DNA of 64,000 nt, taken from Omnitrophica bacterium GWA2_41_15 (GTDB taxonomy: Bacteria; Omnitrophota; Gorgyraeia; Gygaellales; Profunditerraquicolaceae). Positions 8,013 to 53,710 of this stretch are shown one piece after another (the stretch's first letter is position 1; each line of letters begins with the position of its first letter). The stretch covers positions 64,192 through 128,191 of the forward strand of contig CAKKQB010000013.1 in assembly GCA_919901915.1 (NCBI GenBank). The letters run 5' to 3'. The position numbers and the translations under genes were made by a program. The notes below the pieces were generated by a model. That model had not been told where the DNA came from, did not search any database, and saw nothing but the letters and a program-made list of their open reading frames with translations.

Positions 8013-8218
8013 ATTCTCATGGGGCTGTTGCGAAATGCCATTTTTCGTCATTCCGGCGAAAACCGGAATCCAGAACTCTTTGATTTTAATAGACTTATGG
8101 ATACCGGCGACCGAGGGCGAAATGACCGAGGAAGTGTCGGAGCCTAACTGGGCTCGACCTTTCGCCAATATGACGATTTTAATGTATTTTGCAACAGCCC
8201 CCTCATGGATTTATCCGT
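8013..8218. mobile_element. MITE family A (~200 bp) with ~20-bp TIRs CATGGGGCTGTTGCGAAAT and internal hairpin GTCATTCCGGCGAAARCCGGAATCCAG
   Basis: near-identical copy at 51988-52171; TIRs read directly; spurious ORF 8035-8259. Confidence 0.8.
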
Positions 8219-17286: not shown

Positions 17287-18916
17287 ACGTAGAATAATAA
17301 TAAGGTGTAGCGGCATGGAACTCCGCGGCACAGGTATCTACAAGTTTATACACGGGAAAAATATTAAATGATTCGCGTAATTTATACATGTCTTCTTCAT
17401 TTTTACCTAGTAAACGACTCAACTGCCTATCGCTAAAACCAAATTCCTTCGCTTGAGTAAGGAGCTCTTTTGTAATATTATTCTTGTTTTTTATAATCTC
17501 TTTCTCTAAATCAATTATTTCTTTTATATTTGCCAAAAACCAACGGTCAATCTTGGTTAATTCATTAATTTTTTCTATATCCACCCCTATCCTTAAGGCA
17601 TCGCCAATATAAAAGATCCTTTCAGCGTTAGGTATTCTTAACTTTTGCTCAATCTTTTCCCACGCGCCATTATCCAATTCGCCTAAACTTTCTAAACCAT
17701 ACTTTTTAATCTCCAGAGAACGCAGGCCCTTCTGCAAAGCCTCCTTAAAAGTCCTCCCTATCGCCATTACCTCACCAACGGACTTCATAGAAACTGTAAG
17801 CGTGGGATCAGCGGATGGAAATTTTTCAAAAGTAAAGCGGGGAATTTTTACCACGCAATAATCTATTGCCGGTTCAAAACAAGCGGGCGTTTCTTTGGTA
17901 ATATCATTAGGGATCTCATCTAAGGTATAACCCACGGCTAACTTCGCGGCAATTTTCGCGATGGGAAAACCAGTCGCCTTAGACGCCAGAGCAGAGCTTC
18001 TTGAAACCCTTGGATTCATCTCAATAATAACCATGCGCCCGGTTTCAGGATTAATCGCGAATTGAATATTAGAGCCTCCTGTACTAACGCCTATCTCTCT
18101 TATGCAGGCAATTGAGGCGTCGCGCATTTTTTGATATTCTTTATCAGTTAACGTTTGAATAGGCGCGACAGTAATACTATCTCCTGTATGTACGCCCATC
18201 GGATCAAAATTTTCAATGGAACAAACTATTACCACATTATCCATTGAATCCCGCATTACCTCTAATTCAAACTCCTTCCAGCCAATTACCGATTCCTCAA
18301 TAAGAATTTCGCTGTTCATGCTGGACTCAAGGCCATACTTTGCCAAATCCTTAAATTCTTCTATATTATAAGCAACACTTCCGCCTGTTCCGCCTAATGT
18401 AAAACTCGGCCGAATAATCACCGGAAAACCTATCTCTTTAACCGCCTCTATGGCCTCATTTAAATTATAGGCCTTTTTACTTTTAGGCAGGTCCAGGCCA
18501 ATTTTTTGCATCGCCTTTTTAAAAAGCTGCCTGTCTTCGCCTTTTTTGATTGCCTTTATATCTACGCCAATGGTTTCTACCTTATATTTTTTAAGGATTC
18601 CTTTTTCCGCTAAATCTATAGATATATTTAAAGCGGTCTGCCCTCCCAATGTAGGCAATAACGCGTCCGGCCTTTCTCTGGCGATAATCTTTTCTATGAC
18701 CTCTACGGTCATTGGCTCAATATATGTCGCGTCTGCCATTTGAGGGTCGGTCATAATAGTAGCAGGATTTGAATTTATTAAAACTACTTTATAACCTTCC
18801 TGCCTTAAAACCTTGCAGGCTTGAGTTCCGGAATAATCAAATTCACAACCCTGGCTGATAATAATCGGGCCTGAACCAATAATTAGAATCTTCTTTATGT
18901 CAGTACGTTTAGGCAT
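17279..18916 (-). CDS. carB: carbamoyl-phosphate synthase large subunit, N-terminal half only (split carB)
   Basis: [35 protein letters not shown]...; ends ...[14 protein letters not shown] exactly at the boundary between the two homologous halves (cf. E. coli ...YMYSTYEEE...). Confidence 0.85.
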
Positions 18917-18922
18917 AATAAT

Positions 18923-19029
18923 TAGCGTAGAGCGTAGAGCGGATAGTAAAATTAGCATTTAGCGTAGAGCGTAGAGCGTTTAATAAAAGTCTTTTGCCTT
19001 TTCTCTACGCTCTACGCTATACGCTATCC
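18923..19029. repeat. heptamer-array palindromic repeat, family F (AGCGTAG/AGCGTAT/AGCGGAT units), between carA and carB
   Basis: tandem 7-bp units in inverted arrays around AT-rich spacers. Confidence 0.85.
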
Positions 19030-20102
19030 TTCATCATCTCTATAAATTTCCCAAATAGGTATTTCGTATCATGCGGACCAGGAGATGCCTCGGGATGAAA
19101 CTGAACAGAAAAAACAGGCAATTTCTTATGCCGCATTCCTTCCAGGGTATCGTCATTTAAATTTATATGCGTAAGCTCTATATCTTTCTTATCCAAAGAA
19201 TCTATGTCCACGCAAAAACCGTGATTTTGCGCTGTTATACAAACTTTTCCTGTCTTTAAGTCCTTAACCGGATGATTCGCGCCATGGTGGCCGAATTTAA
19301 GTTTATAGGTTTTACCGCCAAAAGCAAGCCCTAACATCTGATGGCCAAGGCAGATTCCGAATATCGGCAATTTACCAATTAAGCCTCTTGTTGTTTCTAC
19401 AACATATTTTACTGCTGATGGATCTCCCGGGCCGTTAGAAAGCAAAACCCCGTCAGGTTTAAGCTCTAAAATATCCTCTGCTCTTGTTTCAGCCGGCACA
19501 ACTACTGCTTCGCAATTATGCTCAACGAGCTCTCTTAAAATATTATATTTTACCCCGCAATCAATCACTACAACCTTATATTTAGCTTTCTTTAAACTAG
19601 GCCAGATATATTTTTTGGCACAACTTACCTCTTTAACTAAGTCTATTCCCGTCAGTCCCAATGACTTTTTTACTTTTTCCACTAAACTCTTTTCATCCAA
19701 ATCTCGCGTAGATAAAACTGCCTTCATCGCGCCTTTTTCTCTGACATGCAAGGTTAGCGCTCTTGTATCTATCCCTTCAATACCCATGATATTATTTTCT
19801 TCTAAGTATTCTCCTAATGACTGCTCCTTGCGCCAATTACTGGCAATTTTACTATATTCTTTTACCGCGAATCCTTCCAGAAACAACCCTGCTGACTCTG
19901 TATCAAGCCTGTTTACGCCATAATTACCAATTAAAGGATACGTCATCGTAACAATCTGGCCTTTATAAGAAGGGTCTGTCAAGATCTCCTGATACCCTGC
20001 CATACTGGTATTAAAAACTATCTCGCCATAGCTTTCGCCAGAAGCGCCAAAAGATTTACCCCTAAATATCATTCCGTCTTCTAATACAAGAATTGCTTCC
20101 AT
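19017..20102 (-). CDS. carA: carbamoyl-phosphate synthase small subunit (glutamine amidotransferase)
   Basis: 361 aa; CarA N-domain + class I GATase (ICLGHQ, catalytic His/Glu). Confidence 0.9.
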   Translation of the reverse strand: MEAILVLEDGMIFRGKSFGASGESYGEIVFNTSMAGYQEILTDPSYKGQIVTMTYPLIGNYGVNRLDTESAGLFLEGFAVKEYSKIASNWRKEQSLGEYLEENNIMGIEGIDTRALTLHVREKGAMKAVLSTRDLDEKSLVEKVKKSLGLTGIDLVKEVSCAKKYIWPSLKKAKYKVVVIDCGVKYNILRELVEHNCEAVVVPAETRAEDILELKPDGVLLSNGPGDPSAVKYVVETTRGLIGKLPIFGICLGHQMLGLAFGGKTYKLKFGHHGANHPVKDLKTGKVCITAQNHGFCVDIDSLDKKDIELTHINLNDDTLEGMRHKKLPVFSVQFHPEASPGPHDTKYLFGKFIEMMKDSV

Positions 20103-20107
20103 ATTTT

Positions 20108-20136
20108 TAGCGTATAGCGGATAGCGTAGAGCGTAT
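20108..20136. repeat. family F heptamer array (single arm, 4 units) between purF and carA
   Basis: agcgtat agcggat agcgtag agcgtat. Confidence 0.7.
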
Positions 20137-20157
20137 AATAGTATAAATTATTATCTT

Positions 20158-21610: not shown

Positions 21611-21772
21611 AAGTGGCATTCAGGCTGTCTCGCAATCCTTATCGTGTCATTGCGAGGGCTGATTTATCAGCCCGTGGCAATCTTTTTACGACGAAGAATG
21701 TTAAAAAGATTGCTTCGCTTCGCTCGCTCTTGACACGCATTTTATTATTGTGATACAGTCTCAATGACACGA
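21611..21772. repeat. family C palindromic repeat (TGTCATTGCGAG...CTCGCAATGACA with GAAGCAATCTTTTTAAAAAGATTGCTTC core)
   Basis: direct reading; between purF and TA pair. Confidence 0.7.
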
Positions 21773-23069: not shown

Positions 23070-23178
23070 GTGTCATTGCGAAGAGGAGCGCTTTTTAGCG
23101 ACGACGAAGCAATCTTTTTACGAAGTAACTCTTTAAAAGATTGCTTCACCCTCGCTAACGCTCGGGTTCGCAATGACA
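23070..23178. repeat. family C palindromic repeat, possibly with AATAATTA target-site duplication
   Basis: gtgtcattgcgaag...cgcaatgacaca; aataatta at 23031-23038 and 23196-23203. Confidence 0.65.
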
Positions 23179-23223
23179 CATTACTTTCCACAATAATTAC
23201 GAATGACTCCTAATTTGTGCTAT

Positions 23224-23513: not shown

Positions 23514-26500
23514 TCATTGTTTATGCCTCCTGCCTTTAATAAGCGCGTAAATAACCGGGACTAAAACTAATGTAATGAGAGTAGAAATACTTAGGCCTCC
23601 GATCATGCTGATACCTATGGGCCTCCAAGTTTCCGAGCCTTCCCCGCGGCTAAAGGCAAGCGGAATCATCCCGAACAAGGTAGTGATGGTAGTCATTAAA
23701 ACCGGCCGCAAGCGGTTTGCGCCGCCGGTAACCACCGCGTCAGCAATAGAGAGCCCGCGGGAACGCAATATATTTATATAATCAACTAAAACAATCGCGT
23801 TATTTACGACGATACCGACGAGCATAATCAGGCCGATAAAAGAAGCAATATTTAAGGTTGTCCCTGTAACAAAAAGGCTAAAAGCCACGCCCGTAAAAGC
23901 AAAAGGCACGGAAAACATAATAATAAACGGGTCAATTAGGGAGCCGAATTGGCTGGCCATTACCATGTAAACCAAAAGCGCCCCCAGTAAAAATAAAAGA
24001 AATAAATCCCGGAAGGATTTTGCCTGTTCTTCCACATCTGCGCCCAGATTTACTGTTATGCCCTGCGGGATATTTTCCGTCTCAATTATTTTGCGCACAT
24101 CTTTAGCCACCTCACCTAAGGAACGCCGGAAAACATTCGCCTCTACCTTAATAATGCGCTCTTGATTCTGGCGTTCAATCTGTATGGGTCCGGTCTTATA
24201 AACTACTGCCGCTATACTGCTTAAACGGATAACCTTGCCCGCGGAATTCAGCAAAGAAATATTTTCTATATCACTTATACTGGCGCGGTCCTCGTCTTTA
24301 AGCCGCACAAAAACATCATATTCTTCTCCTGCCTCGCGGTATTTGGTAGCAGCACTCCCGTAAAAATAAGTACGCAACGTATCTGTAATCTGGCGCATGC
24401 TTAGCCCTAATAAAGATGCCTTGGTACGGTCAACCTCAATTTGTAGCTCTGGTTTGCCTATGTCGCGCGAAATACTTGTATCAACCACGCCGGGGATACG
24501 TTCCATCTTATCTTTAATTTTATTAGCAAGTTGGCCTGTAATTGTAAAATCATTCCCAAGGATTTCTACAGAGACAGGTTTGCCTGCCCCGAACATCAAT
24601 CGGGAAATCGGACTAATGGAAGAAATATTTACTTTTTTTACCCCGAGGATAGTTTTAAGCTTTGGTCGCAGACTTTCTCCGATTTCCTTGGCAGAGCGGC
24701 TGCGCTGTGTTGTTTTGCTTAATTTAATCCCGACAGTCGCGACATTTGAGCCGCTTTTTGCGCTAAATACCGAACCGAACCGACCGCTTGTGGTTGATTG
24801 TCCGCTGCGCGAATATACCTGTTTAGCCTCCGGAACTTCTCCATAGATAATTTTTTCCATTGCCCTTGCCGCGCGGTCAGTCTCTTCTACGCGCGTACCA
24901 ACCGGCATCTCTACTGTAATGGTCAAATCGCCGGAGTCTTCTTCCGGAACAAATTCCGTTCCAACGCGGGAAATAAGAAAAATACTAAAGATAAATACGC
25001 CAATAGCAATAAAAATAGTTGCACCTTTAAATTTAAGCGCTTGAGTTAAAATTTTCGCGTAAGTATAATCAAAAAAAGAAAGTAGTTTTCCGCTTTTCTC
25101 ATAAAGAAACCGCCAAAGGTCTTTTTTGTCCTTTACAGGTTCTGCCGCGGGATTTTTTAACCATAAAGAAGAGAGCATCGGGCTGAAGGTGAGAGCAGTA
25201 AAAAGCGAAGCCAGAAGCGTAACCGTAATCATTACTGCTAATTGTCTAAAGAAAACCCCGACTATTCCGGTAATAAAAACCATCGGCAGAAAAACAACTA
25301 CAGTGGTAAAGGTTGAGGCGCTGACTGCCGAGCCTACTTCAGAAGAGCCAAAGATTGCCGCCTCTTTCGGTTTCTGGCCGCGTTCAAGTTTGCGCACGAT
25401 ATTATCCACAATTACTATCGCGTTGTCCACGACCATTCCGATGGCAATAGCCAGGCTGGAAAGGGAGATGATGTTAATTGTGTAACCGAAAAAATACATA
25501 AAGGTAAAAGCGATAATCAGGGAAAACGGGATAGTCAGGGTAATGATTAGGCTGGGTAAAAATTGGCGCAGGAAAAAGAAAACCACAATTACCACAAAAA
25601 TTCCCCCCCAGTAAATAGTCTGAGACAAATCATTAATTGACTGTTCAATATGTTCGGCATTATCCATAAGCACGGCAAACTTAATTCCTTCTGGTAGGAG
25701 AGGTTGGAGCCGCAATAGTTCCTTGCGCACACTCTTAACGATATCCACGGTATTGGCGCCGGAACGTTTCTGTATCATCATCATTACACTGGGGACATTA
25801 TTTGAGCGCACAAACATTGTCTCTTCCTTAAAAGAATCCGCTACACTGGCAACATCCTTAAGATAAACGGTTTTTTCAGCCTGCTGGGTGAGGATGATGT
25901 CTTTTATCTGTTCGGGATTGCTGAATTCTCCGGGCACGCGCAGGCTGTAATCGGTAAAACCAATTTTTAGGCCGCCGGCAGGAAGGGTGATATTTTCTTC
26001 AGAGAGCCTGTTGATTACCTGTTGGGGGGAGATGTTATATGCCTCTAGGCGGCCGCGGTCAAGGCTGACATTAATCTGGCGCTCTCTTCCGCCAGAAATC
26101 TGCACTGCCCCGACCCCGGGAAGCCGTTTAAGCGCCTCAGCCACATTTTTATCCATCAGATGGTATAATTGGGTATAGTATTTTTCGGAGCTGACAGAGA
26201 AATAAAGAATAGGGATCATTGAGGTGTTAAACTTAAAGACAATCGGCGTATCAATTTCCTCAGGGAGGAGTCGTTTGGCAAATTCTAATTTATCGCGGAT
26301 ATCATTTGAGGCCTCATCAAGATTAACCCCCCATTTAAAACGGCAGGAGACTACGGATGTTCCCTCCATAGAACGCGAGGTAAGCTTGTCTAAGTTAGCA
26401 ACAGTGGCAAGGTTATTTTCTATAACCTCGGTAACCTTACTTTCTACATCTTCCGCGGAAGCCCCTTCATAAACAGTAATAACAGAAATTGAAGGCGGTT

Positions 26501-26621
26501 CAATTTCAGGCATCAAATCAAGAGGAAGCCGAAAAAAAGAAACTATCCCCCAGACTAGGACCGCGAAAAAAATCATCAGATTTGCTACCGGGTATTTTAC
26601 GCCGAATTCAGGTAATTTCAT
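23514..26621 (-). CDS. RND efflux transporter (AcrB/CzcA, HAE family)
   Basis: 1035 aa, 12 TM with two large periplasmic loops. Confidence 0.9.
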   Translation of the reverse strand: MKLPEFGVKYPVANLMIFFAVLVWGIVSFFRLPLDLMPEIEPPSISVITVYEGASAEDVESKVTEVIENNLATVANLDKLTSRSMEGTSVVSCRFKWGVNLDEASNDIRDKLEFAKRLLPEEIDTPIVFKFNTSMIPILYFSVSSEKYYTQLYHLMDKNVAEALKRLPGVGAVQISGGRERQINVSLDRGRLEAYNISPQQVINRLSEENITLPAGGLKIGFTDYSLRVPGEFSNPEQIKDIILTQQAEKTVYLKDVASVADSFKEETMFVRSNNVPSVMMMIQKRSGANTVDIVKSVRKELLRLQPLLPEGIKFAVLMDNAEHIEQSINDLSQTIYWGGIFVVIVVFFFLRQFLPSLIITLTIPFSLIIAFTFMYFFGYTINIISLSSLAIAIGMVVDNAIVIVDNIVRKLERGQKPKEAAIFGSSEVGSAVSASTFTTVVVFLPMVFITGIVGVFFRQLAVMITVTLLASLFTALTFSPMLSSLWLKNPAAEPVKDKKDLWRFLYEKSGKLLSFFDYTYAKILTQALKFKGATIFIAIGVFIFSIFLISRVGTEFVPEEDSGDLTITVEMPVGTRVEETDRAARAMEKIIYGEVPEAKQVYSRSGQSTTSGRFGSVFSAKSGSNVATVGIKLSKTTQRSRSAKEIGESLRPKLKTILGVKKVNISSISPISRLMFGAGKPVSVEILGNDFTITGQLANKIKDKMERIPGVVDTSISRDIGKPELQIEVDRTKASLLGLSMRQITDTLRTYFYGSAATKYREAGEEYDVFVRLKDEDRASISDIENISLLNSAGKVIRLSSIAAVVYKTGPIQIERQNQERIIKVEANVFRRSLGEVAKDVRKIIETENIPQGITVNLGADVEEQAKSFRDLFLLFLLGALLVYMVMASQFGSLIDPFIIMFSVPFAFTGVAFSLFVTGTTLNIASFIGLIMLVGIVVNNAIVLVDYINILRSRGLSIADAVVTGGANRLRPVLMTTITTLFGMIPLAFSRGEGSETWRPIGISMIGGLSISTLITLVLVPVIYALIKGRRHKQ

Positions 26622-27499
26622 TCTCCTCTTCCCTCTCTATCAACGATTATTGCCGCGCCGTCTTTTAGGTCCTGCTGGCCGAAAACAATCACTATATCTC
26701 CTTCTTTTATCCCGGTTAATATCTCAAGCCTGTTGTTATCGCGCCGGCCCGTAGTAACCTTAGTTTTATTAGCAATATTACCCTCTGCCAAAAAGACAAA
26801 TTTTTCTCCTCCATCCTGCACAACGGCGTCTTGAGGTAAAACCAAAACATCGCTTAAAACTGAGGCAATAATTTTAATCCGGCAAAACATCCCGGATTTT
26901 AAATGATGGCTGTTATTCGGGATAGAGATTTCTATTGGCAGGGTGCGGGTTTGCGAGTCAACCATCTCGCTGACGCGCCAAACCTCTCCGAAAAATTCTT
27001 CACGCGGATAAGCCTCTACCGCAATGACTGCTCTAAGACCGCGTTTCATATAAGGTATATCCTGCTCAGGGATATTCAGCTGGACAATTACCTCATCCAT
27101 ATTTACGACAATTGCTACCGCGCTTAAGCCGGGCGTAAGGCTAGCCCCTTTATCAAGAAGGATTCTTCCGACAATGCCGGAAATCGGAGACTCAACTTTG
27201 GCTAATTCAAATTTTAATCCGGTTTCATCGCGGTCAATATTTGCCAGCGCCTGGCCTTTTTGCACTACATCCCCCTCCTCAACCAAATATTCAAAAAGCT
27301 TCCCGGTAACTTTAGAAAAAACCTTTGCTTCGTCTTTTGCCTTAAGGCTACCGACATAATCAAAGGATAAAGTAAAATTTTCTTTTTTTACCGGCGCGGC
27401 CTTAACAACTTGTTTCGCTTGCTCTGCCATGGCAGGGCAGACGAACAATAGAATAAAAAGATAAAGACAAATTTGCATTCTATATTTTGCATTTTTCAT
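26618..27499 (-). CDS. RND efflux periplasmic adaptor (membrane fusion protein)
   Basis: 293 aa, signal peptide, HlyD/AcrA-like lipoyl/beta-barrel pattern; 4-nt overlap with RND. Confidence 0.85.
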   Translation of the reverse strand: MKNAKYRMQICLYLFILLFVCPAMAEQAKQVVKAAPVKKENFTLSFDYVGSLKAKDEAKVFSKVTGKLFEYLVEEGDVVQKGQALANIDRDETGLKFELAKVESPISGIVGRILLDKGASLTPGLSAVAIVVNMDEVIVQLNIPEQDIPYMKRGLRAVIAVEAYPREEFFGEVWRVSEMVDSQTRTLPIEISIPNNSHHLKSGMFCRIKIIASVLSDVLVLPQDAVVQDGGEKFVFLAEGNIANKTKVTTGRRDNNRLEILTGIKEGDIVIVFGQQDLKDGAAIIVDREGRGE

Positions 27500-27501
27500 T
27501 T

Positions 27502-28764
27502 TTATATCCCTCCTGTTGCCTGCTCAAACTTTGCCTTAGCGATAATGTAATCGTAAATTGCCTGCTTTTGATTAAACAAAGAAACCTCGTATTTTAGCCC
27601 GGCATCACCCAAATCAAGGGAACTGCTCTGGCCGGCTTTGTATTTTTCCTGTAATACTAAAAATGTATTTTTATAAAGGCCCTCCTCGGTTTGGCTGGCC
27701 TTTATTCTGGCAATAGCGTTCTTCAGCTCTAAATAAGTATTTTTTAATTCCAAAGCGATATCCTTAACGGTTTTTTCTTTAATAAGACGCGTTGCTTTTA
27801 AATCCACGATTGCCTGCTCAATCTTAGCCTTGGTCAACCAACCATCAAATATAGGCCCGGAGAAAGTCAGGCCAATCACATTATAATCATTCTGGTTTTT
27901 TTCCATAGCTGTACTTGCGCGCGAACGGCCGTAATAATCCCAAGAGGCATAAATATCCGGACGGTTACCCGCCTTGGCAATTTCAATTGACCTCTTATCC
28001 GCGTTCTCCTGCGCCTCATATTGCTTTATTTCCGGCCTATTACGCATCGCTTTTAAAAATGCTTCATCAAAAGCAATCACGCGCTCTTCATAATTAAACA
28101 CGCCCGTTAATTTTATCCGCGCGTCAAAACCTAAATATAATAAATTTCTCAAAAGCTCTTCGCCTGTTTCAACCTGATTTAAAGACGCGCTATAAGCCTC
28201 TTCTGTTACGGCAAGCGACAACTGAATACCTAAAATATCAGATTCAGAAACCTCTCCGTTTTTATAACGTAAAAGTAAAGAATTCAAATGTTCTCGCGCG
28301 TTTTCAAGTATCCCTCTATTTAACCGCGTAAATTCCTCACTGAGAAGTAAAGCATAAAATGCCTTTGTTACGTCTAAAACTAATTCTAATTTTGTCTTAT
28401 CCATAATAGCCCGCGCCACTTCAAATTTAGCGTTATTATACCGGATAGTATTAACAACCTCGCCACCTCTATAAAGGTATTGTTTTAAAGCGGCTCCAGC
28501 AGTAGTTTGCGCCAAGTCCTTCGCGTAATACCCCCGAGTATCTGTCAGGCTTCCAGTAAGATTTAGCGTCGGGAAAAAACTGGCTTTACTCTCAGAGATT
28601 TTCTCTTTCGCTTTTTTAACATCTTCTGCCTTAAGCAAAATGCCGCGGTTATCCCGCAAGGCAATAACTATCGCTTCATCAAGAGTCAAAGTTATCTCTT
28701 GCGCGTGGACAATAGACGGTAAAAAAAAAGTAAGTACGATTAACAAAAAAAATAGTCTTTTCAT
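27502..28764 (-). CDS. outer-membrane efflux protein (TolC-like OMF)
   Basis: 420 aa, signal peptide, two OEP repeats. Confidence 0.8.
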   Translation of the reverse strand: MKRLFFLLIVLTFFLPSIVHAQEITLTLDEAIVIALRDNRGILLKAEDVKKAKEKISESKASFFPTLNLTGSLTDTRGYYAKDLAQTTAGAALKQYLYRGGEVVNTIRYNNAKFEVARAIMDKTKLELVLDVTKAFYALLLSEEFTRLNRGILENAREHLNSLLLRYKNGEVSESDILGIQLSLAVTEEAYSASLNQVETGEELLRNLLYLGFDARIKLTGVFNYEERVIAFDEAFLKAMRNRPEIKQYEAQENADKRSIEIAKAGNRPDIYASWDYYGRSRASTAMEKNQNDYNVIGLTFSGPIFDGWLTKAKIEQAIVDLKATRLIKEKTVKDIALELKNTYLELKNAIARIKASQTEEGLYKNTFLVLQEKYKAGQSSSLDLGDAGLKYEVSLFNQKQAIYDYIIAKAKFEQATGGI

Positions 28765-28766: not shown

Positions 28767-29117
28767 TTAAACGAAATTTTCTTGAACCAACATCTCCTTT
28801 ATTCGCGTCAGAATACGCAGGTAATCAAGCCGATCTTTTTCTGAAATCTTGCTAAAAATTTTAATAATCATCTCTCGCCGCTGGACATTGATCTTCTTAA
28901 CCAGCTTCGTACCGCGCAAGCTAAGTTTTACTTTAATAATCCGCCTGTCTTTAGAATCATCCTGTCTTAAACAATATCCGCCCCTAACCAGCCTATCCAC
29001 AGTGCCGGTCATCGCGGCGGTAGTCACGCGCATAAAACGCGCCAAAGCGCTCATCTTAGATTCGCCTACACGGTTTAAAGACTCCAAAATCAAAATTGTC
29101 AAGGAGTAACTACTCAA
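28767..29117 (-). CDS. MarR-family transcriptional regulator (short; TTG start in ORF track)
   Basis: wHTH ...SALARFMRVTTAAMTGTVDRLVRGGYCLRQDDSKDRRIIKVKLSLRGTKL; N-terminal dimerisation helix apparently missing; start immediately after terminator T-run, no SD. Confidence 0.65.
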   Translation of the reverse strand: MSSYSLTILILESLNRVGESKMSALARFMRVTTAAMTGTVDRLVRGGYCLRQDDSKDRRIIKVKLSLRGTKLVKKINVQRREMIIKIFSKISEKDRLDYLRILTRIKEMLVQENFV

Positions 29118-29124
29118 TAAAAAA

Positions 29125-29156
29125 AGCGCCTCTGCTTTCGCAGAGGCGCTTTTTTT
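29125..29156. terminator. bidirectional rho-independent terminator separating GOGAT-family gene/MITE region from marR-efflux operon
   Basis: A7-AGCGCCTCTGC-tttc-GCAGAGGCGCT-T7. Confidence 0.7.
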
Positions 29157-29161
29157 GTAAT

Positions 29162-29421
29162 AGTTCAGCTCTCGGAAGTACCCGTCGGTGTCATTGCGAG
29201 CCCGAAGGGCGAAGCAATCTCTTTAAAAAGATTGCTTCGTCGCTATCGCTCCTCGCAATGAGACTGCGTCATAATTCGGTTTTGGTGTCATTCCGGCGAA
29301 AGCCGGAATCCATTCTCCGGCAATAACACAACTCACTGGATTCCGGCTTTCGCCGGAATGACGAATTTTTAACGATTATGACACAGTCTGAATGACACAA
29401 GTACTTCCAAGAGCTGAACTA
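29162..29421. mobile_element. ~260-bp composite MITE bounded by 20-bp TIRs (AGTTCAGCTCTYGGAAGTAC) carrying a family C hairpin and a palindromic pair of family A hairpins
   Basis: TIRs at 29162-29181 and 29401-29421; internal gtcattgcgag...ctcgcaatgag (29188-29264) and 29286-29362. Confidence 0.7.
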
Positions 29422-29466
29422 TTACCTTTTTTTGTATTTCTTAAAACAGAAAACTCCTTAAGTCCA

Positions 29467-31110
29467 TTAGGCCGCCTTCATGATCTTCTTTGCCTTGGCA
29501 TCAGCCGCATCTGTAATAAACGCGATTCCGGTTTCCTTTTCAGTCTCACGGTTGGCAGAGAAAATATCATCCCGGGTAATTGTCTTGAGCGAAAATCTCC
29601 TCGCGCCAGCCATTAACTGCTGAACCCCTGCGGCTAATTTATCCGCCAATGTCCAAACAGCAACCGCGCCATACGGAATATTTTTCATTTCATCCTTGCC
29701 AACCTTTTTCTGCACATCATAGTATCCGGAAAATATCTCATCAACAGTAGCTCCGAATTCAGCAACCGAAGCAGGAAGCTTATCCCAATTGCCACAAACT
29801 TTTTCTTTTACTGCCGGATTCAATGCTCCCTCGATATTCGAGCCCAAAAATCCGGGAATCATCAACGAGCGGCCCATACAAACAAGTTTCGTATACGGAG
29901 CGCCTAAAGCCAACGCCTTAAAAATATGGTCTTCACGGGCTAGACCGCCAGCAAAAGCCATATCCACAACTTTCTTATCTTTTTTAGTAAGCATTTGCGC
30001 GTACTCATAAGCCTTAGCATGCAAAAGAAGAGAAGGAACTCCCCATGCCTCCATCATATTCCACGGGCTCATTCCAGTTCCGCCGCCTGAACCATCAATA
30101 GTAAGCAAGTCTAATTTCGCGTCAGTAGCGTATTTTATAGACATCGCCAAAGCTTCCATTCCGTAAGAACCGGTTTTTAAAGAAATGCGCTTATAACCGA
30201 TTTTACGCAAATATTTAACCGCCTTCATAAAATTTTCTCTCACAGCGTCAGAAGAAGATAGGCTTGTATAACCTAAACGGCTGTGGCGCGCGAATGACTT
30301 AATTGCTTTGTGTTTAAAAGCCTCTTGAACTTCCGGAATCGTAGGATCAGGGTCAACCACATAACCTCTTTTCTTTAAGAAAAGGGCGTAGTCAAGGCTA
30401 TTTACCTGAATTTCTCCACCGATACACTTTGCTCCCTGGCCCCACTTAAGTTCAATAATCGCCTTATCACCATATTTCTCAATCACGTATTCAGCAACGC
30501 CATTACGCGTATCTTCCACATTCATCTGCACGATAATCGCGCCATATCCGTCATAATAACGTAAAAATGTCTCAATCCTTCTATCTAATTCCGGCGCCTT
30601 CAAAATCCTGCCGTCTTTTATTTCCGCTTTCTGATCAATACCAACTACGTTTTCGCCAACTACAATTGGAAAACCTACTAGCGCCGCGCCTACAGCAAAA
30701 GATTCCCAATATTTAGCGGCAATAAATGTTGAGCCTAACGCGCCGGTCATCACAGGAATTTTAAACTTTGTCTTTACTTGCTGCCCAAATTCACCCTCAA
30801 GGCTTACATTCGGAAAAATACAATCATCTTCAGAATTGGATAACCCTTTTGGCAAACCAGTAACTCCGTAATTATATCCATTTATACGCAAAGAATTATA
30901 GCAAACACCCGTATGAGAGGTATTGGAACTGCCTGCTGTAGTAAAACTATAATCCCTGGGGTAGAGCATTTTTCTTCCCTTAAGGCTCGAAAGCCATGTT
31001 TCACATTTTCCCATACAATCAGCCCGGCACAAGGTGCATAAGCCTGATTCCGCGGGATTGCCTCTATTCACACTCCCTAAAGCATCATTTGTCTTTGGCC
31101 ATTGAATCAT
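29467..31110 (-). CDS. glutamate-synthase-family FMN-binding domain protein (archaeal-type GltB central domain, stand-alone) with N-terminal Cys cluster
   Basis: 547 aa; CTLCRADCMGKC; TIM-barrel FMN region with DGSGGGTG motif. Confidence 0.7.
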   Translation of the reverse strand: MIQWPKTNDALGSVNRGNPAESGLCTLCRADCMGKCETWLSSLKGRKMLYPRDYSFTTAGSSNTSHTGVCYNSLRINGYNYGVTGLPKGLSNSEDDCIFPNVSLEGEFGQQVKTKFKIPVMTGALGSTFIAAKYWESFAVGAALVGFPIVVGENVVGIDQKAEIKDGRILKAPELDRRIETFLRYYDGYGAIIVQMNVEDTRNGVAEYVIEKYGDKAIIELKWGQGAKCIGGEIQVNSLDYALFLKKRGYVVDPDPTIPEVQEAFKHKAIKSFARHSRLGYTSLSSSDAVRENFMKAVKYLRKIGYKRISLKTGSYGMEALAMSIKYATDAKLDLLTIDGSGGGTGMSPWNMMEAWGVPSLLLHAKAYEYAQMLTKKDKKVVDMAFAGGLAREDHIFKALALGAPYTKLVCMGRSLMIPGFLGSNIEGALNPAVKEKVCGNWDKLPASVAEFGATVDEIFSGYYDVQKKVGKDEMKNIPYGAVAVWTLADKLAAGVQQLMAGARRFSLKTITRDDIFSANRETEKETGIAFITDAADAKAKKIMKAA

Positions 31111-31398
31111 TTTAATTCTCCTTTTCTATTTGTTACACAATTTCTCTGCCTATAGCTTTGGCTATCGAAAGCCAAAGCTAAAAATTAAAAAGACACCTTA
31201 GAAAGTATTCAGAACGTCTTTGTTCTATACTTCTTTCGAAAAACCCAACCTGCTTCTTTGCAAGTTCCGGCTGTCTTAAATTATTGACAAAATCTTAGCA
31301 CCGAAACAACTTTTGTCAAGAAAAATAAACACGAATTACCACGAATTTTCACCCCACACCAATACATTAGTAACCCGCTTTGTCGTATCGAGCGCTCT

Positions 31399-31466
31399 TT
31401 TTGGGCGAGCAAGCTCGCCCCTACGAATCGTCGTATACATCGCGTAGGGGTGGGCTTGCCCACCCT
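31399..31466. repeat. family E triple overlapping hairpins (GGGCGAGCAAGCTCGCCC / CCCCTACG..CGTAGGGG / GGTGGGCTTGCCCACC) downstream of pyrG
   Basis: 29-bp core TTTTGGGCGAGCAAGCTCGCCCCTACGAA shared with 33203-33231. Confidence 0.65.
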
Positions 31467-31527
31467 ATGTTGATTATTAAATTCGTAACTATGTTCACAA
31501 TAAATACAAAACAACGAAAATTTGCTA

Positions 31528-37700: not shown

Positions 37701-39386
37701 TGGGTCAATTGCCGGATTAGTAACCTGCGCGAATAACTGTTTAAAATAACTATAAAGCAACTGCGGCTTATCAGATAAAACCGCATGCGGGGTATCATTA
37801 CCCATTGAGCCATTCGGTTCATGAGAATCTTCCACCATAGGTTTAATGATAAATTTAAAATCCTCGCGGGTGTAACCGAAAGCTTTGAATAGAGTTAACG
37901 GATCTACTTTATTAGCGGATAGCGGATAGCTTTTATTAGCGTAGAGCGTAGAGCGTAAAGCGTAGAGCGTTTTGCTTTTCCTATCCGCTATACGCTCTAC
38001 GCTATCCGCTGATAATTTATCCAACTCTAACATATTTTTTTTAAGCCATTCTCCATACGGCTTAGAGCTTGCCATTGTTTCTTTTATTTCCTTATCTTCA
38101 ATTATGCGGCCTTCTTCTGTATCAACAAAAAGCATCTTTCCCGGTTCAAGCCTTCCTGAGATAGAAATATCATCCGGCGCGATATCTAAAACCCCTGCCT
38201 CTGAAGCCATAACTACCAAATTCTTTTTGGTCACAATATAGCGGCTAGGCCTTAAACCATTTCTGTCTAAAACCGCGCCAATCCTTACGCCATCAGTAAA
38301 GGCAATGGCTGCCGGTCCATCCCAGGACTCAATAAGACAAGTGTGGTATTTATAAAAATCTCTTACATTTTGACTCAAAAGATTATTCTGCTCCCAAGCG
38401 CTGGGTATTAACATCATCATCGCGTGAGACAAAGATCTACCCGATAAAACTAAAAGTTCAAAAACATTATCAATAGCCGCGGAATCGCTTCCCCCGGGAA
38501 CAATCACCGGAAAAATTTCCTTTAAATCCTTACCAAATAATTTACTTTTTAGTAAACCTTGGCGGGCAGTCATCCAATTTATATTCCCTTTTAAGGTATT
38601 TATCTCTCCATTATGCGCCAAGAACCGAAAAGGCTGCGCCAGATCCCAAGTGGGAAAAGTATTGGTACTATAACGGGAATGCACTAAACAAATCGCGCTT
38701 TGAAGAGCGCTGTCTTTTAAATCCAAAAAGAATTTCTCCAACTGCTCAGGCATAAGCAGGCCTTTATAAGAAAGCGTGCGGCAAGAAAGATTAGTAATAT
38801 AAAAAAATGATTTTTGTTTTAAGAATAAAGAGCGGATTTCGTTTTCTATTTTCTTGCGGATAATATAAAGCCTGCGCTCAAAATCAAGGCCATCCTTACC
38901 TATACTTAGACCTTTACCTTTACCTATAAAAACCTGCTCAATCACCGGTTGAGTAAGCTTTGCGGTTTTGCCAATCGCGGAATTATCAACCGGGACAATC
39001 CGCCAACCAAGCAAGGCCTGGCCCTCTTCTTTAATAATTCTAGCAAAGATACCCTTACATAACGCGCGCTCTTTTTTGTTAGTGGGAAGAAATACCATGC
39101 CTATCCCATAATCGCCAGAGGACGGTAAAATAAAATTTTCCTTCGCGCAGGCTTTTGCCAAAAATTCATGTGGCGCCTGAATAAGTATGCCTGCGCCATC
39201 CCCGGTCTCTGGGTCGGCGCCAGTTGCCCCGCGATGAGAAAGACGGCCTAAAACCTCCATGCCCTGTTTAATAATTTCATAAGATTTTTTGCCTTTGACA
39301 TCGCAAACAAATCCTACGCCGCAGGAATCATGTTCAAAACGGGAATCATACAACCCGTATTTTTCTAATTTCTGACGATTATCCAT
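34743..39386 (-). CDS. gltB: glutamate synthase large (alpha) subunit; carries in-frame heptamer-repeat insertion
   Basis: 1547 aa; MDNRQ..CGVGFV Ntn glutaminase, FMN and GXGXG domains; residues ~459-492 encoded by palindromic repeat at 37912-38010. Confidence 0.95.
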   Translation of the reverse strand: MDNRQKLEKYGLYDSRFEHDSCGVGFVCDVKGKKSYEIIKQGMEVLGRLSHRGATGADPETGDGAGILIQAPHEFLAKACAKENFILPSSGDYGIGMVFLPTNKKERALCKGIFARIIKEEGQALLGWRIVPVDNSAIGKTAKLTQPVIEQVFIGKGKGLSIGKDGLDFERRLYIIRKKIENEIRSLFLKQKSFFYITNLSCRTLSYKGLLMPEQLEKFFLDLKDSALQSAICLVHSRYSTNTFPTWDLAQPFRFLAHNGEINTLKGNINWMTARQGLLKSKLFGKDLKEIFPVIVPGGSDSAAIDNVFELLVLSGRSLSHAMMMLIPSAWEQNNLLSQNVRDFYKYHTCLIESWDGPAAIAFTDGVRIGAVLDRNGLRPSRYIVTKKNLVVMASEAGVLDIAPDDISISGRLEPGKMLFVDTEEGRIIEDKEIKETMASSKPYGEWLKKNMLELDKLSADSVERIADRKSKTLYALRSTLYANKSYPLSANKVDPLTLFKAFGYTREDFKFIIKPMVEDSHEPNGSMGNDTPHAVLSDKPQLLYSYFKQLFAQVTNPAIDPIREELVMSLDTYLGPQKNILDEQPRHCHKLLVKNPILTNEDLKKIHDIKKNGFKTKTISLLFNISEKNNFKKALDRICKETEAAIKEGFTFVILSDQGINKDKACLSALLATACVHQDLVRKALRTQVSIIVQSASPREVHHFALLFGYGADCINPYLAYEAAAFLIRDKEVDLDLESAIKHYIKAVDKGILKILSRMGISTLQSYRGAQIFEALGLSSEVIDKYFTGTVSRIGGIDLGIIEKEALLRHKEAFAVDGLQRPFLATGGLYQWKKDGEFHLWNPDSIAALQGAVRNNDSKKYQEFAKLINDQSSNPATLRSLFKFKEVKPIPIEEVEPVSEIVRRFVTGAMSFGSISKACHETIAIAMNRLGGRSNTGEGGEDPARFVAFPNGDSKRSAIKQVASGRFGVITNYLVNADELQIKIAQGAKPGEGGQLPGHKVSAAIAKIRYTTPGVTLISPPPHHDIYSIEDLAQLIFDLKNVNPRARVSVKLVSEIGVGTIATGVAKGHADMILISGGDGGTGASPLSSIKHAGLPWELGIAETHQTLVLNDLRSRVRLQVDGGMRTGRDVAVAALLGAEEFGFCTSVLVVLGCVMLRHCHLNNCSLGVATQDELLEKRFSGKPEYVENYFRFIAQELRQIMSSLGIVKIDDLIGRADLLEVNSKILPWKAKKIDFSRILYQPKGNGRASHSPSRKPEGSGLAPYKQDYGIDNILDRKLIELARGALENRKPIKIELSIRNHNRSVGTMLSGEVCRIFGEDGLPANTIHFKFKGVAGQSFGAWLAKGVTLELEGLTNDYVGKGMSGGKIIIYPDRQSNYKVEENIIIGNTTFYGAILGSAYIRGIAGERFCIRNSGLYAVVEGVGDHACEYMTGGRVVVIGRTGRNFAAGMSGGIAYVWDKDGDFKNKCNMEMVILEAVAEEDARTIEKLLSNHYHYTRSSSAKNILDNFTPELKKFVKVMPIEYKRVLGGRKTEEKIELVEASDG
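37912..38010. repeat. family F heptamer-array palindrome inserted in frame inside gltB
   Basis: agcggat x2 ... agcgtag x4 ... ctatccgct atacgct ctacgct atccgct; translates LSADSVERIADRKSKTLYALRSTLYANKSYPLSANK. Confidence 0.85.
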
Positions 39387-39391
39387 ATTTT

Positions 39392-39558
39392 TAGCGTATA
39401 GCGTATAGCGTAGAGCGTAGAGCGTATAGCGTATAGCGTAGAACGTAGAGCGTAGAGCGGATAGCGGATAGTAAAAATCTATGTTTTAACTATATGTTAT
39501 CCGCTATTCCTACACGCTTTCTTTCCTATCCGCTAAACGCTATACGCTCTACGCTAAT
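39392..39558. repeat. largest family F locus (11-unit left arm + degenerate right arm) between glnN and gltB
   Basis: direct reading of tandem heptamers. Confidence 0.85.
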
Positions 39559-39589
39559 ATAAAATACCTCATAGACCTACGAGGCATAT

Positions 39590-44635: not shown

Positions 44636-44661
44636 CCTCTTATTTTTAATGTTTTAGTATT

Positions 44662-44741
44662 TAGCGGATAGCGTATAGCGTATATATAGGTTTTACTATC
44701 CGCTATACGCTCTACGCTATACGCTATACGCTTGATATTTT
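44662..44741. repeat. family F palindrome between nfnB and nfnA
   Basis: agcggat agcgtat agcgtat / atccgct atacgct ctacgct atacgct atacgct. Confidence 0.85.
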
Positions 44742-45569
44742 AAGATTACAGATATGCTTTTCTTTATCTAAATAAACACTGTTCCTCTTTGTCAATTCAT
44801 CCCAATTTACTTGAGTTCCGTCAAATTCCGGGCCATCAACGCAAGCAAATTTCGTCTTACCTGCCACAGTTACACGGCAACAGCCGCACATTCCAGTAGC
44901 ATCTACCATCAAAGGATTCAAAGAAACAATGGTTTTAACTTTAAAATCGCTAGCAACCTCGCAAACTCTTCTCATCATCGGTATCGGGCCGACTGCGTAA
45001 ATTAGCGAATAGCGGATAGCGGATAGTGAATAGCTTAATACCTCCTGCAAAATATCAGTAACAAAGCCTTTCCTGCCGCAAGAACCGTCATCAGTGGTTA
45101 TATAAAGCTCATCGCAAAACACCTTTAGCTCCTGCTCCAAAATCAATAAATCATTGTTTCTTGCGCCCAGTATAGTAGTAGTATGGTTTCCCGCTTCTTT
45201 CAAAGCCTTGGCAACCGGATAAATCTCCGCAATTCCTACGCCTCCGCCTACAAGAATTAAATTTCCAAAATTTTTAATCTCAGTAGCATGCCCCAGGGGC
45301 CCGGCCAAAGCGTATAATGAATCACCAACCTCCATCTTGCCCAGCAACTTAGTAGTTAAGCCAACCTCTTGAAAGATCAAGGTAATTGTGCCTATGTCAG
45401 AATTTTTATCTACTATAGTTAGAGGTATCCTTTCGCCTTCCTCGCATACCATAAGAACAACAAATTGGCCCGGTCTTACTTTCCTGGCAATAAGCGGGCT
45501 TAAGATTTCAAAGCGCTTAATTGTTACGTCTTGCGTTTGTGCTAAAATTTCTTTTTTGATTATCCGCAT
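44724..45569 (-). CDS. nfnA: NfnA/SudB (PyrK-like FAD/[2Fe-2S] subunit); in-frame heptamer-repeat insertion
   Basis: 281 aa; C-terminal CGCC...C 2Fe-2S; segment LSYSLSAIRYSLI encoded by repeat 45003-45036. Confidence 0.75.
   Translation of the reverse strand: MRIIKKEILAQTQDVTIKRFEILSPLIARKVRPGQFVVLMVCEEGERIPLTIVDKNSDIGTITLIFQEVGLTTKLLGKMEVGDSLYALAGPLGHATEIKNFGNLILVGGGVGIAEIYPVAKALKEAGNHTTTILGARNNDLLILEQELKVFCDELYITTDDGSCGRKGFVTDILQEVLSYSLSAIRYSLIYAVGPIPMMRRVCEVASDFKVKTIVSLNPLMVDATGMCGCCRVTVAGKTKFACVDGPEFDGTQVNWDELTKRNSVYLDKEKHICNLKISSV
45003..45036. repeat. family F single arm inserted in frame in nfnA
   Basis: agcgaat agcggat agcggat agtgaat. Confidence 0.75.
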
Positions 45570-45607: not shown

Positions 45608-45728
45608 GGGACTGTTGTGAAATACCAAACCTTGCGTCATTCTGAGGCCGAAAGCCGAAGAATCTCGACGCTGATAAGATCCTTCGCTTCGCTCAGGATG
45701 ACGAAAAAGGGTATTTCGCAACGGTCCC
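45608..45728. mobile_element. MITE family B: same TIR family (GGGACTGTTGYGAAATAC) with different internal hairpin GTCATTCTGAGGCC...GCTCAGGATGAC
   Basis: TIRs at 45608-45626 and 45709-45728. Confidence 0.7.
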
Positions 45729-46484: not shown

Positions 46485-47642
46485 TTAACGATTCCTCTTC
46501 AAAAAACTTTCTATTCTACTTAACGCCTCTTTCAAATTATCAAAACTTGCGGCATAGGATATGCGAATATTGTCCGCGAACTGAGCGCCAAAAGCTGTGC
46601 CCGGAATAACCGCGACCTTTTCCTCCTTTAAAAGCTGTTGGCAAAAATCCATCGCCTTAAGACCGCTGCTTTTTATGCTGGGAAAAGCATAGAAAGCACC
46701 CTGCGGCTTTGAACACTCAAGGCCGATGCGATTCAGCTCACTAACCACAAACTCTCTTCTTCGTTTATATTCACGCTTCATCTCTTCCACTGATTTTCTG
46801 CCTGAATGCATCGCTTCAGAAGCAGCTATTTGAGAAGTAATAGACACGCACATAATGGTATACTGATGAATCTTAGTCATAGCCGCGATAATCTCTTTTG
46901 GGCCGCAAGCAAAGCCCACACGCCAGCCAGTCATCGCGTAACTTTTGGAAAAACCATCAAGATAAACAGTCGAATTTTTTGCTTGAGGCAATGTCGCGAA
47001 AGGCGTATGAGTAAAATCATACGTCAAATCTCCATAAACCTCATCGCTGATACAAAGCAGATTATACTTCAACGCGATCTTCTTAATTTCCTCTAATTCT
47101 TTTTTAGTATAAGATACGCCCGTAGGATTAGTAGGGTAGTTCAATATAATTGCTTTAGCTTTCTTGTCTATGCTCTTCTCCAAGCTTTCCGGTGTAAGCT
47201 TAAAATTGTTTTTACTTGTATCGATATAAACAGGTATACCGCCGGCTAATTCACTAACCGGGCCGTAAGAAACATAACATGGCTCGGGTATAATTATTTT
47301 ATCACCCGGATTTATAATGGAACGCAAAACTAAATCCAAAGCCTCGCTTACCCCAACAGTAATCAAAATCTCTTCATCCGGACAATAATCCAAACCGTAT
47401 TTATTTTTTAGGTATTGTGAAATGGTCAGCCTTAATTTATACAAGCCCTTATTTGAGGTGTAAGAGGTAAAACCCTCTTCTAATGAAGCTATCCCTGCTT
47501 CGCGTATCTGCCAAGGCGTAACAAAATCCGGCTCACCCACGCCAAGGGAAATTACATCCTTCATGCCTAATACTAAATCAAAAAACGCGCGAATTCCGGA
47601 GGGATGCATTTGCTTAACTTTTTCGGAAACCAAATCTTTCAT
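46485..47642 (-). CDS. class I/II PLP-dependent aminotransferase (aspartate aminotransferase-like)
   Basis: 385 aa; NPTG, SKSYAMTGWRVGF PLP-lysine region. Confidence 0.85.
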   Translation of the reverse strand: MKDLVSEKVKQMHPSGIRAFFDLVLGMKDVISLGVGEPDFVTPWQIREAGIASLEEGFTSYTSNKGLYKLRLTISQYLKNKYGLDYCPDEEILITVGVSEALDLVLRSIINPGDKIIIPEPCYVSYGPVSELAGGIPVYIDTSKNNFKLTPESLEKSIDKKAKAIILNYPTNPTGVSYTKKELEEIKKIALKYNLLCISDEVYGDLTYDFTHTPFATLPQAKNSTVYLDGFSKSYAMTGWRVGFACGPKEIIAAMTKIHQYTIMCVSITSQIAASEAMHSGRKSVEEMKREYKRRREFVVSELNRIGLECSKPQGAFYAFPSIKSSGLKAMDFCQQLLKEEKVAVIPGTAFGAQFADNIRISYAASFDNLKEALSRIESFLKRNR

Positions 47643-47650
47643 CGTTTTCA

Positions 47651-47718
47651 GCGTTTAGCGGATAGCGTTTAGCGTATAGTTTTTTTTATCCGCTATACGC
47701 TCTACGCTATACGCTATT
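47651..47718. repeat. family F palindrome between lrp and aminotransferase
   Basis: arms around T8 loop. Confidence 0.85.
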
Positions 47719-53637: not shown

Positions 53638-53644
53638 ATTTTAT

Positions 53645-53700
53645 TAGCGCGGATAGCGTTTAATTTTTTCTATACGCTATACGCTCTACGCTATACGCTA
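53645..53700. repeat. family F palindrome between nrdJ and apgM
   Basis: agcgcggat agcgttt ... atacgct atacgct ctacgct atacgct. Confidence 0.85.
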
Positions 53701-53710
53701 AAACTTTTAT

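Follow-up and report, generated by a model that had tools for sequence, protein, structure and literature searches.

Introduction

Members of the IS66 family have inverted repeats (IRs) of 20-30 bp that begin with GTAAGCG, together with 8-bp direct repeats (PMC11946415), and ISDge4, which belongs to the IS66/ISBst12 group, combines the terminal inverted repeat (TIR) GTAACTGCTCAGCA with an 8-bp repeat (PMC12898284). Palindromic repeats of another kind make up the NIMEs, in which pairs of the 20-bp dRS3 repeat (6-bp terminal IR, ATTCCC-N8-GGGAAT) flank RS elements and which a 2007 report described as unseen outside Neisseria (PMC1797815). Here we describe a locus with features of both: a 269-bp composite element in a 64,000-nucleotide stretch (hereafter the window) of Omnitrophica bacterium GWA2_41_15 (contig CAKKQB010000013.1, positions 64,192 to 128,191), where it sits between a gene of the GOGAT family and a shortened marR gene at the head of an RND efflux operon. 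From its anatomy we argue that the element is probably a non-autonomous insertion resembling a miniature inverted-repeat transposable element (MITE), with IS66-like ends and a cargo of hairpin modules, and that marR lost its 5' end in a different event.

The mobile DNA of the Omnitrophota has barely been described, and the element would be one more small non-autonomous transposon. Its interest would lie in the landing of a MITE in the A-tract of a terminator without destruction of that terminator, and in a cargo of independently recurring hairpin modules, one of them near-identical to the dRS3 of Neisseria. Overall, we regard the locus as fairly ordinary selfish DNA beside a broken regulator.

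Terminal inverted repeats and a target-site duplication delimit the element

The original prediction had pointed to inverted repeats at 29162-29181 and 29401-29421, between the GOGAT-family gene and the efflux operon. These repeats are real and longer than had been noted, with 25-nt arms that are complementary at 24 of 25 positions (96%) and lie 219 nt apart (coordinates of all features are collected in Table 1). The range given for the left copy of the 20-mer stands, while that for the right copy is one base too long for a 20-mer. Within the 64 kb, the 20-mer occurs at only these two sites, with 0 occurrences expected from shuffled sequences. A target-site duplication (TSD), proposed earlier as something to look for, is present as well: the 8-bp sequence CTTTTTTT abuts both arms. 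The direct-repeat match continues through GTA to give 11 bp, and we considered an 11-bp TSD (CTTTTTTTGTA) and rejected it, since a solo third copy of the terminus (see below) begins at the same G of GTAATAG, which assigns GTA to the element and leaves a duplication of 8 bp. Identical 8-mers at the TSD spacing were found at 5 of 63,715 window positions, the element site included. Of the 20 inverted-repeat pairs in the window whose arms reach 14 nt or more, a single other one is flanked by a direct repeat of at least 3 bp (3468-3961, with 15-nt arms and a 5-bp repeat, inside the open reading frame (ORF) at 2402-4114), and this pair is taken as chance.

The element delimited in this way, whose end sequence is GTAATAGTTCAGCTCTYGGAAGTAC, is short and non-coding: stops are frequent in all frames, no gene is called there in the public contig, and a protein-database search with its longest open frame yielded no candidate. 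At the DNA level it folds as one long hairpin (-87.3 kcal/mol, z = -16). Shortness, lack of coding capacity, 25-bp TIRs starting with GTAA and an 8-bp TSD are all traits of IS66-derived MITEs, including those of the ISBst12 group such as ISDge4. The terminus GTAATAGTTCAGCT is identical to the ISDge4 TIR at 10 of 14 bases, GTAA included, and we know of no family other than IS66 whose ends fit the element. Unlike IS66-derived MITEs, however, the element ends in GTAATAG, is essentially single-copy and has an interior of unrelated hairpin modules instead of insertion-sequence remnants, and we consider its ends compatible with the IS66 family, not proof of membership.

The element lies between the GOGAT-like gene and its own terminator

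The GOGAT-like gene is followed by an intrinsic terminator with 17 stem pairs, 10 of them in a GC-rich core, which is intact and unique in the window; a simple terminator scanner had overlooked it, with its A/T arms absorbed into the stem. The left TSD copy coincides, on the plus strand, with the T-run arm of this terminator and reads AAAAAAAG on the minus (gene) strand, where it forms the A-tract that leads into the terminator stem. We fetched 80 loci of relatives of the GOGAT-family protein and inspected the 16 closest Omnitrophota loci (85-88% identity) by eye, finding a GC-rich hairpin followed by a T-run 20-45 nt past the stop codon in 15 of them. When the element and one repeat copy are removed in silico, the predicted empty-site junction is GAAATACAAAAAAAGCGCCTCTGC and the sequence reads stop codon, 33 nt, A7G, stem-loop and CT7, the same layout as in the relatives. 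Since excision restores this layout, the element appears to have landed in the A-tract that separates the gene from the stem of its own terminator, which it left unharmed. None of the orthologous GOGAT-like loci examined carries the element. That the terminator might itself be part of the mobile element was considered and rejected, as it is unique in the window and the relatives carry one at the same position.

Both TSD copies are intact, which argues for a simple insertion within the terminator A-tract. We propose that a DDE-type transposase acting in trans and making 8-bp staggered cuts would have inserted the 269-bp element into the A-tract between the GOGAT-like stop codon and the terminator stem, with duplication of the minus-strand octamer. 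The GOGAT-like mRNA would have gained by this a very stable structure of 277 nt in its 3' untranslated region (UTR), ahead of the terminator (predicted RNA fold of 29100-29470, -199.5 kcal/mol, z = -18), and the most likely consequence of such a stem-loop upstream of an intact terminator would be neutral or, at most, a stabilisation of the mRNA.

Copy number and the source of a transposase

The identical locus is found on a contig at the European Nucleotide Archive (ENA), NODE_67 (95 kb, 33.2x) of the groundwater sample ERZ1292638, and a further copy of the TIR lies on a second contig of that sample, NODE_43 (L124 11495-11531, equivalent to L003 3739-3776), with a TPR gene on one side and an ABC-2 permease gene on the other. 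This solo end comprises 38 nt (GTAATAGTTCAGCTCTCGGAAGTACCCGTCGGTGTCAT) identical to the left end of the element, namely the 25-mer and the next 13 nt, and then diverges, the identity ending exactly after the heptamer GTGTCAT. It adjoins two hairpins that resemble family A of the element (see below), and ahead of it stands CAATTACT, which echoes the GTAAT terminus in inverted form over 5-7 nt. Given the similar coverage of NODE_43 (33.8x) and NODE_67 in the same sample, the solo end very probably belongs to the same genome, and a break between k=31 unitigs falls exactly where a two-copy repeat of 38 nt predicts it.

Several observations weigh against an insertion of the MITE type. The exact TIR 20-mer (with one Y) had 0 matches in 185,579 species-representative genomes (GTDB) and a single match in metagenome contigs, the solo end on L003; when up to 5 mismatches in 25 were allowed, 1.3 Mb of fetched related loci yielded only the contig itself and L003. 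A Logan unitig runs unbranched from the unique flank in the GOGAT-like gene to 70 nt into the right end of the element, where it stops at a family-A hairpin, so that the right end is single-copy in that sample. One full copy in ~77 kb of the genome plus one solo end fall short of the dispersed copies by which a MITE is recognised, and no transposase of any kind, RAYT/Y1_Tnp included, is present among the Pfam-annotated called genes in the ~77 kb of contig. In addition, CTTTTTTT is of low complexity and has 28 occurrences in the window, and of the canonical IS66 start GTAAGCG the terminus GTAATAG matches the first four bases and differs in the next three.

The original prediction had held that a TIR without recurrence elsewhere would speak against its interpretation; recurrence is indeed nearly nil, with the solo end as the only further copy, and the near-unique copy number keeps an origin in situ as a mosaic (see below) alive. 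The TIR 16-mer gave 22 matches in viral contigs, about the chance expectation for a collection of this size, and none of them extends past the 16-mer. Among the called genes in the ~77 kb of contig there is no IS66-type transposase with matching ends either, and mobility would be supplied in trans by a putative partner of the IS66 type. In favour of a MITE we count that the host genome holds a second MITE family with 5-bp TSDs in three copies.

A mirror-image interior built of recurrent hairpin modules

If the terminal repeat is called T, the element has the layout T-[C]-D-A : A'-D'-T', in which the left half is the mirror image of the right, as an alignment with the reverse-complemented right half makes plain. 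The only major asymmetry is a 65-nt C hairpin in the left half, lying between GTGTCATT and the AGACTG of module D, and its presence in one half only shows that the element can gain or lose modules. The earlier description of arms that bracket a family-C hairpin and a palindromic pair of family-A hairpins proved accurate: C occupies 29188-29264, and the two A hairpins form a 26-nt doublet with 100% complementary arms and a 24-nt spacer. The 25-bp TIRs, the 8-bp TSD, the lack of an ORF and the independent recurrence of modules in the window also bear out the view of the locus as a composite non-autonomous element.

Family A (GTCATTCCGGCGAAAGCCGGAATCCAG) has six exact or near-exact units in the window (6191, 8047, 29287, 29337, 52014 and 56161) and four diverged variants (6120, 8158, 52115 and 56192), all of them between called ORFs; doublets are frequent (6120/6191, 56161/56192 and 8047/8158), and long arrays do not occur. 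In blastn searches the best family-A match to Neisseria gonorrhoeae had an E-value of 3e-6, with 16-17 matching places per chromosome; the hairpins read CTGGATTCCGGCTTTCGCCGGAATGACGAATTTT here and CTGGATTCCCGCTTTCGCGGGAATGACGAATTTT in N. gonorrhoeae, differing in one stem pair, which is compensated. Weaker matches fell on replicons of Niveispirillum, Azospirillum, Blastomonas and Sphingomonas. Family C, of the form GTGTCATTGCGAG ... GAAGCAATC loop GATTGCTTC ... CTCGCAATGAC, has related copies at 21644-21770 and 23070-23180, and its arms match a hairpin of the same architecture on plasmids of Methylosinus trichosporium and Methylocystis rosea (L121) at 94-97% over 32 nt. Sequences related to module D lie at 12398, 21614 and 21750, and the head that the modules have in common, GTGTCAT, has 9 occurrences in the window, each in intergenic DNA. 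When the element was compared with plasmids and phages by blastn, the internal hairpins alone gave matches and the TIR gave none. As a separate observation, the RND gene is followed after 334 nt by a family-C copy, so that the block from the marR remnant to RND is bracketed by C hairpins.

These regularities can also be read as a mosaic of palindromic units assembled in situ, in the manner of E. coli BIMEs or Neisseria NIME arrays, with the outer arms arising as an inverted duplication and the T-runs as coincidence. Modules A, C and D all recur independently in the window, the intergenic head GTGTCAT is shared among them and marks the very point at which the solo T end stops, the halves mirror each other over their full length and not at the tips alone, the A doublet is laid out as dRS3-RS-dRS3, like a NIME unit, and the T end is nearly single-copy, all of which such growth would explain. 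An inverted duplication, in contrast, does not produce identical repeats of 8 bp (11 bp with GTA) that abut both arms, for which the chance is ~1e-4 per site; nor would it account for an inverted repeat that ends precisely at the direct-repeat boundary, or for the normal spacing between stop codon and terminator that excision restores. We consider growth in place unlikely for these reasons and favour a MITE-like insertion whose interior would be a palindromic stack of small hairpin modules that also exist free-standing elsewhere in the genome.

Among described repeat families, NIMEs invite comparison with the interior. As in these, the A hairpins form an inverted pair about a short spacer and are mixed with other repeat modules, and the pair flanks 30 nt (29310-29339), compared with 19-214 bp for the RS elements of NIMEs, which are often arrayed. 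Unlike NIMEs, the element resides in a host of another phylum, its core is ATTCCG-N8-CGGAAT, which departs from the dRS3 consensus although the flanks are almost identical, long arrays are lacking here, and TIRs and a TSD, both lacking in NIMEs, surround the A pair. With the repetitive extragenic palindromic (REP) sequences and their BIME and REPIN assemblies the modules share their nature as short imperfect extragenic palindromes (~8 per 77 kb), the arrangement in inverted doublets and the location at gene 3' ends before terminators; they differ in having GTCAT or GTGTCAT heads in place of GTAG/GGAG, and no RAYT is encoded among the called genes of the 77 kb. REPINs, which are mobilised by RAYTs, moreover make no target duplication, whereas the element has one. 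Correia elements (CREEs) resemble the element in size (~100-270 bp), in TIRs of ~26 bp, in forming a long hairpin, in occupying transcribed intergenic sites and in their capacity to alter mRNA processing, yet they duplicate TA and not 8 bp, occur in hundreds of copies and have no sequence similarity to it.

It is tempting, though quite tentative, to view the hairpin modules as cosmopolitan palindromic families that cross phyla, insert into each other and hitch-hike inside TIR-bounded MITEs. The locus would on that view be a NIME-like mosaic outside Neisseria, possibly served by a putative recombinase that recognises the GTCAT...CCAG hairpin. Its units would be the dRS3-like hairpin, which matches Neisseria almost base for base and resembles repeats of Azospirillaceae and sphingomonads, and the CATTGCGAG hairpin common to Methylocystaceae plasmids; the underlying hairpin types are GTCATTCC-N-GGAATCCAG and GTCATTGCGAG. 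Neither an Nf-type phage nor an IS110-type recombinase was found in the sequence examined. The identity of hairpin modules across phyla is the most intriguing loose end of this analysis.

Roles at the RNA level are known for REP/BIME and Correia elements, and the element, too, might be under selection as a 3'-UTR stabiliser, an RNase III site or an attenuator of read-through into the RND operon, and not merely be selfish. It sits on the coding strand in a transcribed 3' UTR ahead of a terminator, its predicted RNA fold is extremely stable, and compensatory double changes are seen in 4 of 8 family-A stem pairs (12 variants in a small, hand-picked set). We nevertheless hold such a role to be improbable: orthologous loci lack the element throughout, no Rfam family matched at the gathering threshold (sub-threshold matches were terminator look-alikes), no promoter-like site was detected on the gene strand, and palindromy at the DNA level accounts for the fold equally well.

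marR is a 5'-truncated remnant at a separate junction

The marR ORF encodes 116 aa and begins one base after the T-run of the terminator, 39 bp from the element, at a TTG that is simply the earliest start codon available in the frame and has no Shine-Dalgarno sequence. The earlier remark that marR is N-terminally short and starts with TTG directly after a T-run is correct in both respects, and comparison with orthologues shows that the full-length ones are not equally short: ~120 homologues measure 149-153 aa, and the closest full-length one is 77% identical. Only orthologue residues 43-147 are aligned by tblastn, and the alignment with solved MarR chains starts from residue ~37-40, which leaves the remnant without ~35-42 N-terminal codons; the winged helix-turn-helix is retained (PF01047, 43.6 bits, residues 8-61). 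By tblastn, no remnant of the missing N-terminus was found anywhere in the 64 kb. In MarR proteins the N-terminal helix contributes to the dimer interface along with the C-terminal helices, and since homology starts only at residue 43, the remnant is without this helix. The 116-aa 'MarR' is truly a 5'-truncated remnant and should be read as such in annotations. In winged-helix domain, C-terminal helices, gene order and identity to the closest full-length orthologue it resembles the repressors of Omnitrophota marR-OEP-MFP-RND operons; it departs from them by the loss of its first 35-42 residues, which correspond to helix alpha-1 of the dimer interface, and of the entire promoter and operator region upstream.

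That upstream DNA is recognisable in four orthologous loci as a TTGACA-17-TATATT promoter and an operator-like TTGATAGTTAAYATAGTTAAAT box, both of which are absent here; homology to the orthologous marR loci starts within ~20 nt of the terminator T-run. L004, L006 and L008 keep the order marR-OEP-MFP-RND; L002, a short contig, covers only marR-OEP. Wherever an orthologous locus extends to an upstream neighbour of marR, this neighbour is a different one, and a GOGAT-like gene followed by marR-RND is seen in none of the closest relatives inspected (L013-L045). The native terminator and the lack of any relative with GOGAT-like/marR adjacency together indicate that the 5' end of marR is a separate, lineage-specific rearrangement junction.

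The original prediction had suggested that the insertion itself may have truncated marR. In favour of this view, the truncated gene lies 39 bp from the element, and insertion sequences and MITEs can cause adjacent deletions. An adjacent deletion, however, would remove one TSD copy and neighbouring DNA; here both copies and the 38-nt terminator are intact, this terminator is native to the upstream gene, and the adjacency of the GOGAT-like gene and marR is itself lineage-specific. With an intact terminator and both TSD copies separating the element from the marR junction, the insertion cannot have cut marR, and a deletion caused by it is the least credible of the explanations that we weighed.

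A chimeric assembly in which a GOGAT-like contig was joined to a marR-RND contig would make the truncation apparent only, and the repeat density of the region, inside which short-read unitigs break, might invite such an error. The marR junction, though, lies beside a terminator that is unique in the window and not within a repeat, the identical 116-aa product is found on three contigs of more than 50 kb from NCBI and ENA sources, and an independent Logan unitig supports the joint between gene and element. We regard a chimera as very improbable.

An insertion into the A-tract would be one of two events in the history of the locus. A separate rearrangement would have joined DNA just past the terminator T-run to about codon 36-42 of marR, at the cost of the marR promoter and operator and of the N-terminal helix that serves dimerisation. 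OEP, MFP and RND, which are themselves intact, would be left without a repressor or a recognisable promoter of their own, behind a strong terminator. A promoter scan for the RND operon found nothing on the gene strand, and with a strong terminator upstream, no recognisable promoter or operator and a crippled repressor, expression of the efflux genes is predicted to be low or dependent on read-through. The expectation that regulation of the RND pump could be affected may hold in this form, by way of the lost 5' end, promoter and operator of marR, and not by way of the element. With the repressor N-terminus, promoter and operator all lost in an unrelated rearrangement, the pump is predicted to be expressed abnormally, its operon being either silent or sustained by read-through.

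By eye, a perfect -35 hexamer TTGACA (29102-29097, minus strand), spanning the rearrangement junction, can be seen with a 17-nt spacer and a weak -10 sequence, TTTAAA (together 29102-29074), below the criteria of the scanner. We speculate that this pair, which falls within the 5' end of the marR remnant, could serve the efflux genes as a weak promoter created at the junction. In the orthologous operon of L004, a 58-aa gene for a 23S_rRNA_IVP (four-helix-bundle) protein lies between MFP and RND (8661-8837).

Gene neighbourhood and other repeats of the window

The window has a low GC content (~40%) and all of its genes are on the minus strand, where they follow in the order amt, GS-III, the large and small subunits of GOGAT, CTP synthase, the GOGAT-family gene, the element, the marR ORF, OEP, MFP and RND. 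MarR and TPR homologues are annotated as Candidatus Omnitrophota.

Table 1. Positions of the element, its modules and the adjoining genes in the window
Feature	Position	Strand	Basis or remark
GOGAT-family gene (Glu_synthase domain), 547 aa	29467..31110	-	element now in its 3' UTR
TSD, right copy, CTTTTTTT, 8 bp	29426..29433	.	direct repeat abutting TIR
MITE-like composite element, 269 bp, no ORF, near-palindrome	29157..29425	.	inverted-repeat and duplication boundaries
Right TIR	29401..29425	-	24/25 match to left arm
Module D, right copy (reverse complement GTGTCATTCAGACTGTGTCATAAT)	29375..29398	-	repeat search, half-versus-half alignment; inner inverted-repeat arm 29375-29394
Family-A hairpin, inverted orientation	29337..29362	-	-54.9 kcal/mol
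Family-A hairpin; dRS3-like core ATTCCGGCGAAAGCCGGAAT at 29290-29309	29287..29312	+	blastn match to Neisseria gonorrhoeae repeats
Module D, left copy (CAATGAGACTGCGTCATAAT), arm of 20-nt inner inverted repeat	29256..29275	+	repeat search
Family-C hairpin, 77 nt (outer arms GTGTCATTGCGAG / CTCGCAATGAGAC; inner palindrome 29210-29239)	29188..29264	.	-38.4 kcal/mol
Left TIR (module T), GTAATAGTTCAGCTCTCGGAAGTAC	29157..29181	+	repeat search
TSD, left copy, CTTTTTTT, 8 bp	29149..29156	.	direct repeat abutting TIR
Intrinsic (bidirectional-type) terminator of GOGAT-like gene	29119..29156	-	17-bp stem, GAAA loop, U7 tail; -30.9 kcal/mol, z = -8.6
5'-truncated marR remnant, 116 aa, TTG start	28767..29117	-	short compared with orthologues
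OEP efflux gene, intact	27502..28764	-	downstream of marR remnant
MFP efflux gene, intact	26618..27499	-	downstream of marR remnant
RND efflux gene, intact	23514..26621	-	downstream of marR remnant

The second MITE family occupies 8021-8201, 51988-52168 and 45608-45728, with IRs of ~38 nt that start with GGGGCTGTTGCGAAAT or GGGACTGTTGTGAAAT (GGGG/GGGA) and clean 5-bp TSDs at the three sites (CTCAT, TCGTT and TTGAT). Two of its copies, of 181 bp and 93% identical, hold family-A hairpins, and the 121-bp variant holds a different hairpin. In its GGGG IR starts and 5-bp TSDs, this family is reminiscent of Tn3-derived miniature elements.

Another type of palindromic repeat (GGGCGAGCAAGCTCGCCCC and GGGGTGGGCTTGCCCACCC) lies at 31380-31470, between CTP synthase and the GOGAT-like gene, and a short-read unitig (L123 1-25) ends at it, which implies that this palindrome is repeated in the genome. 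Tandem arrays of the heptamers TAGCGTA, GAGCGTA and GGATAGC, with at most 11 copies, form intergenic inverted pairs at 18913-19049, 20098-20140, 37903-38027, 39382-39562, 44645-44754, 45003-45034, 47639-47732 and 53634-53709. Most of them sit among genes of nitrogen and nucleotide metabolism (carA/B, purF, GOGAT, GS-III and amt) and they resemble the STRR-type repeats of cyanobacteria. Elsewhere in the window, an exact tandem duplication of 464 bp (14714-15598; 1.9 copies, 100% identity) includes an N_methyl (prepilin-type) gene, decamer repeats TTTATCCGTG occur beside pilin-like genes at 8210, 14023, 14692 and 15178, and a 47-nt inverted repeat (571-617 and 9765-9811; 87% complementary, arms 9.1 kb apart) encloses a block resembling type IV pilus and T2SS genes.

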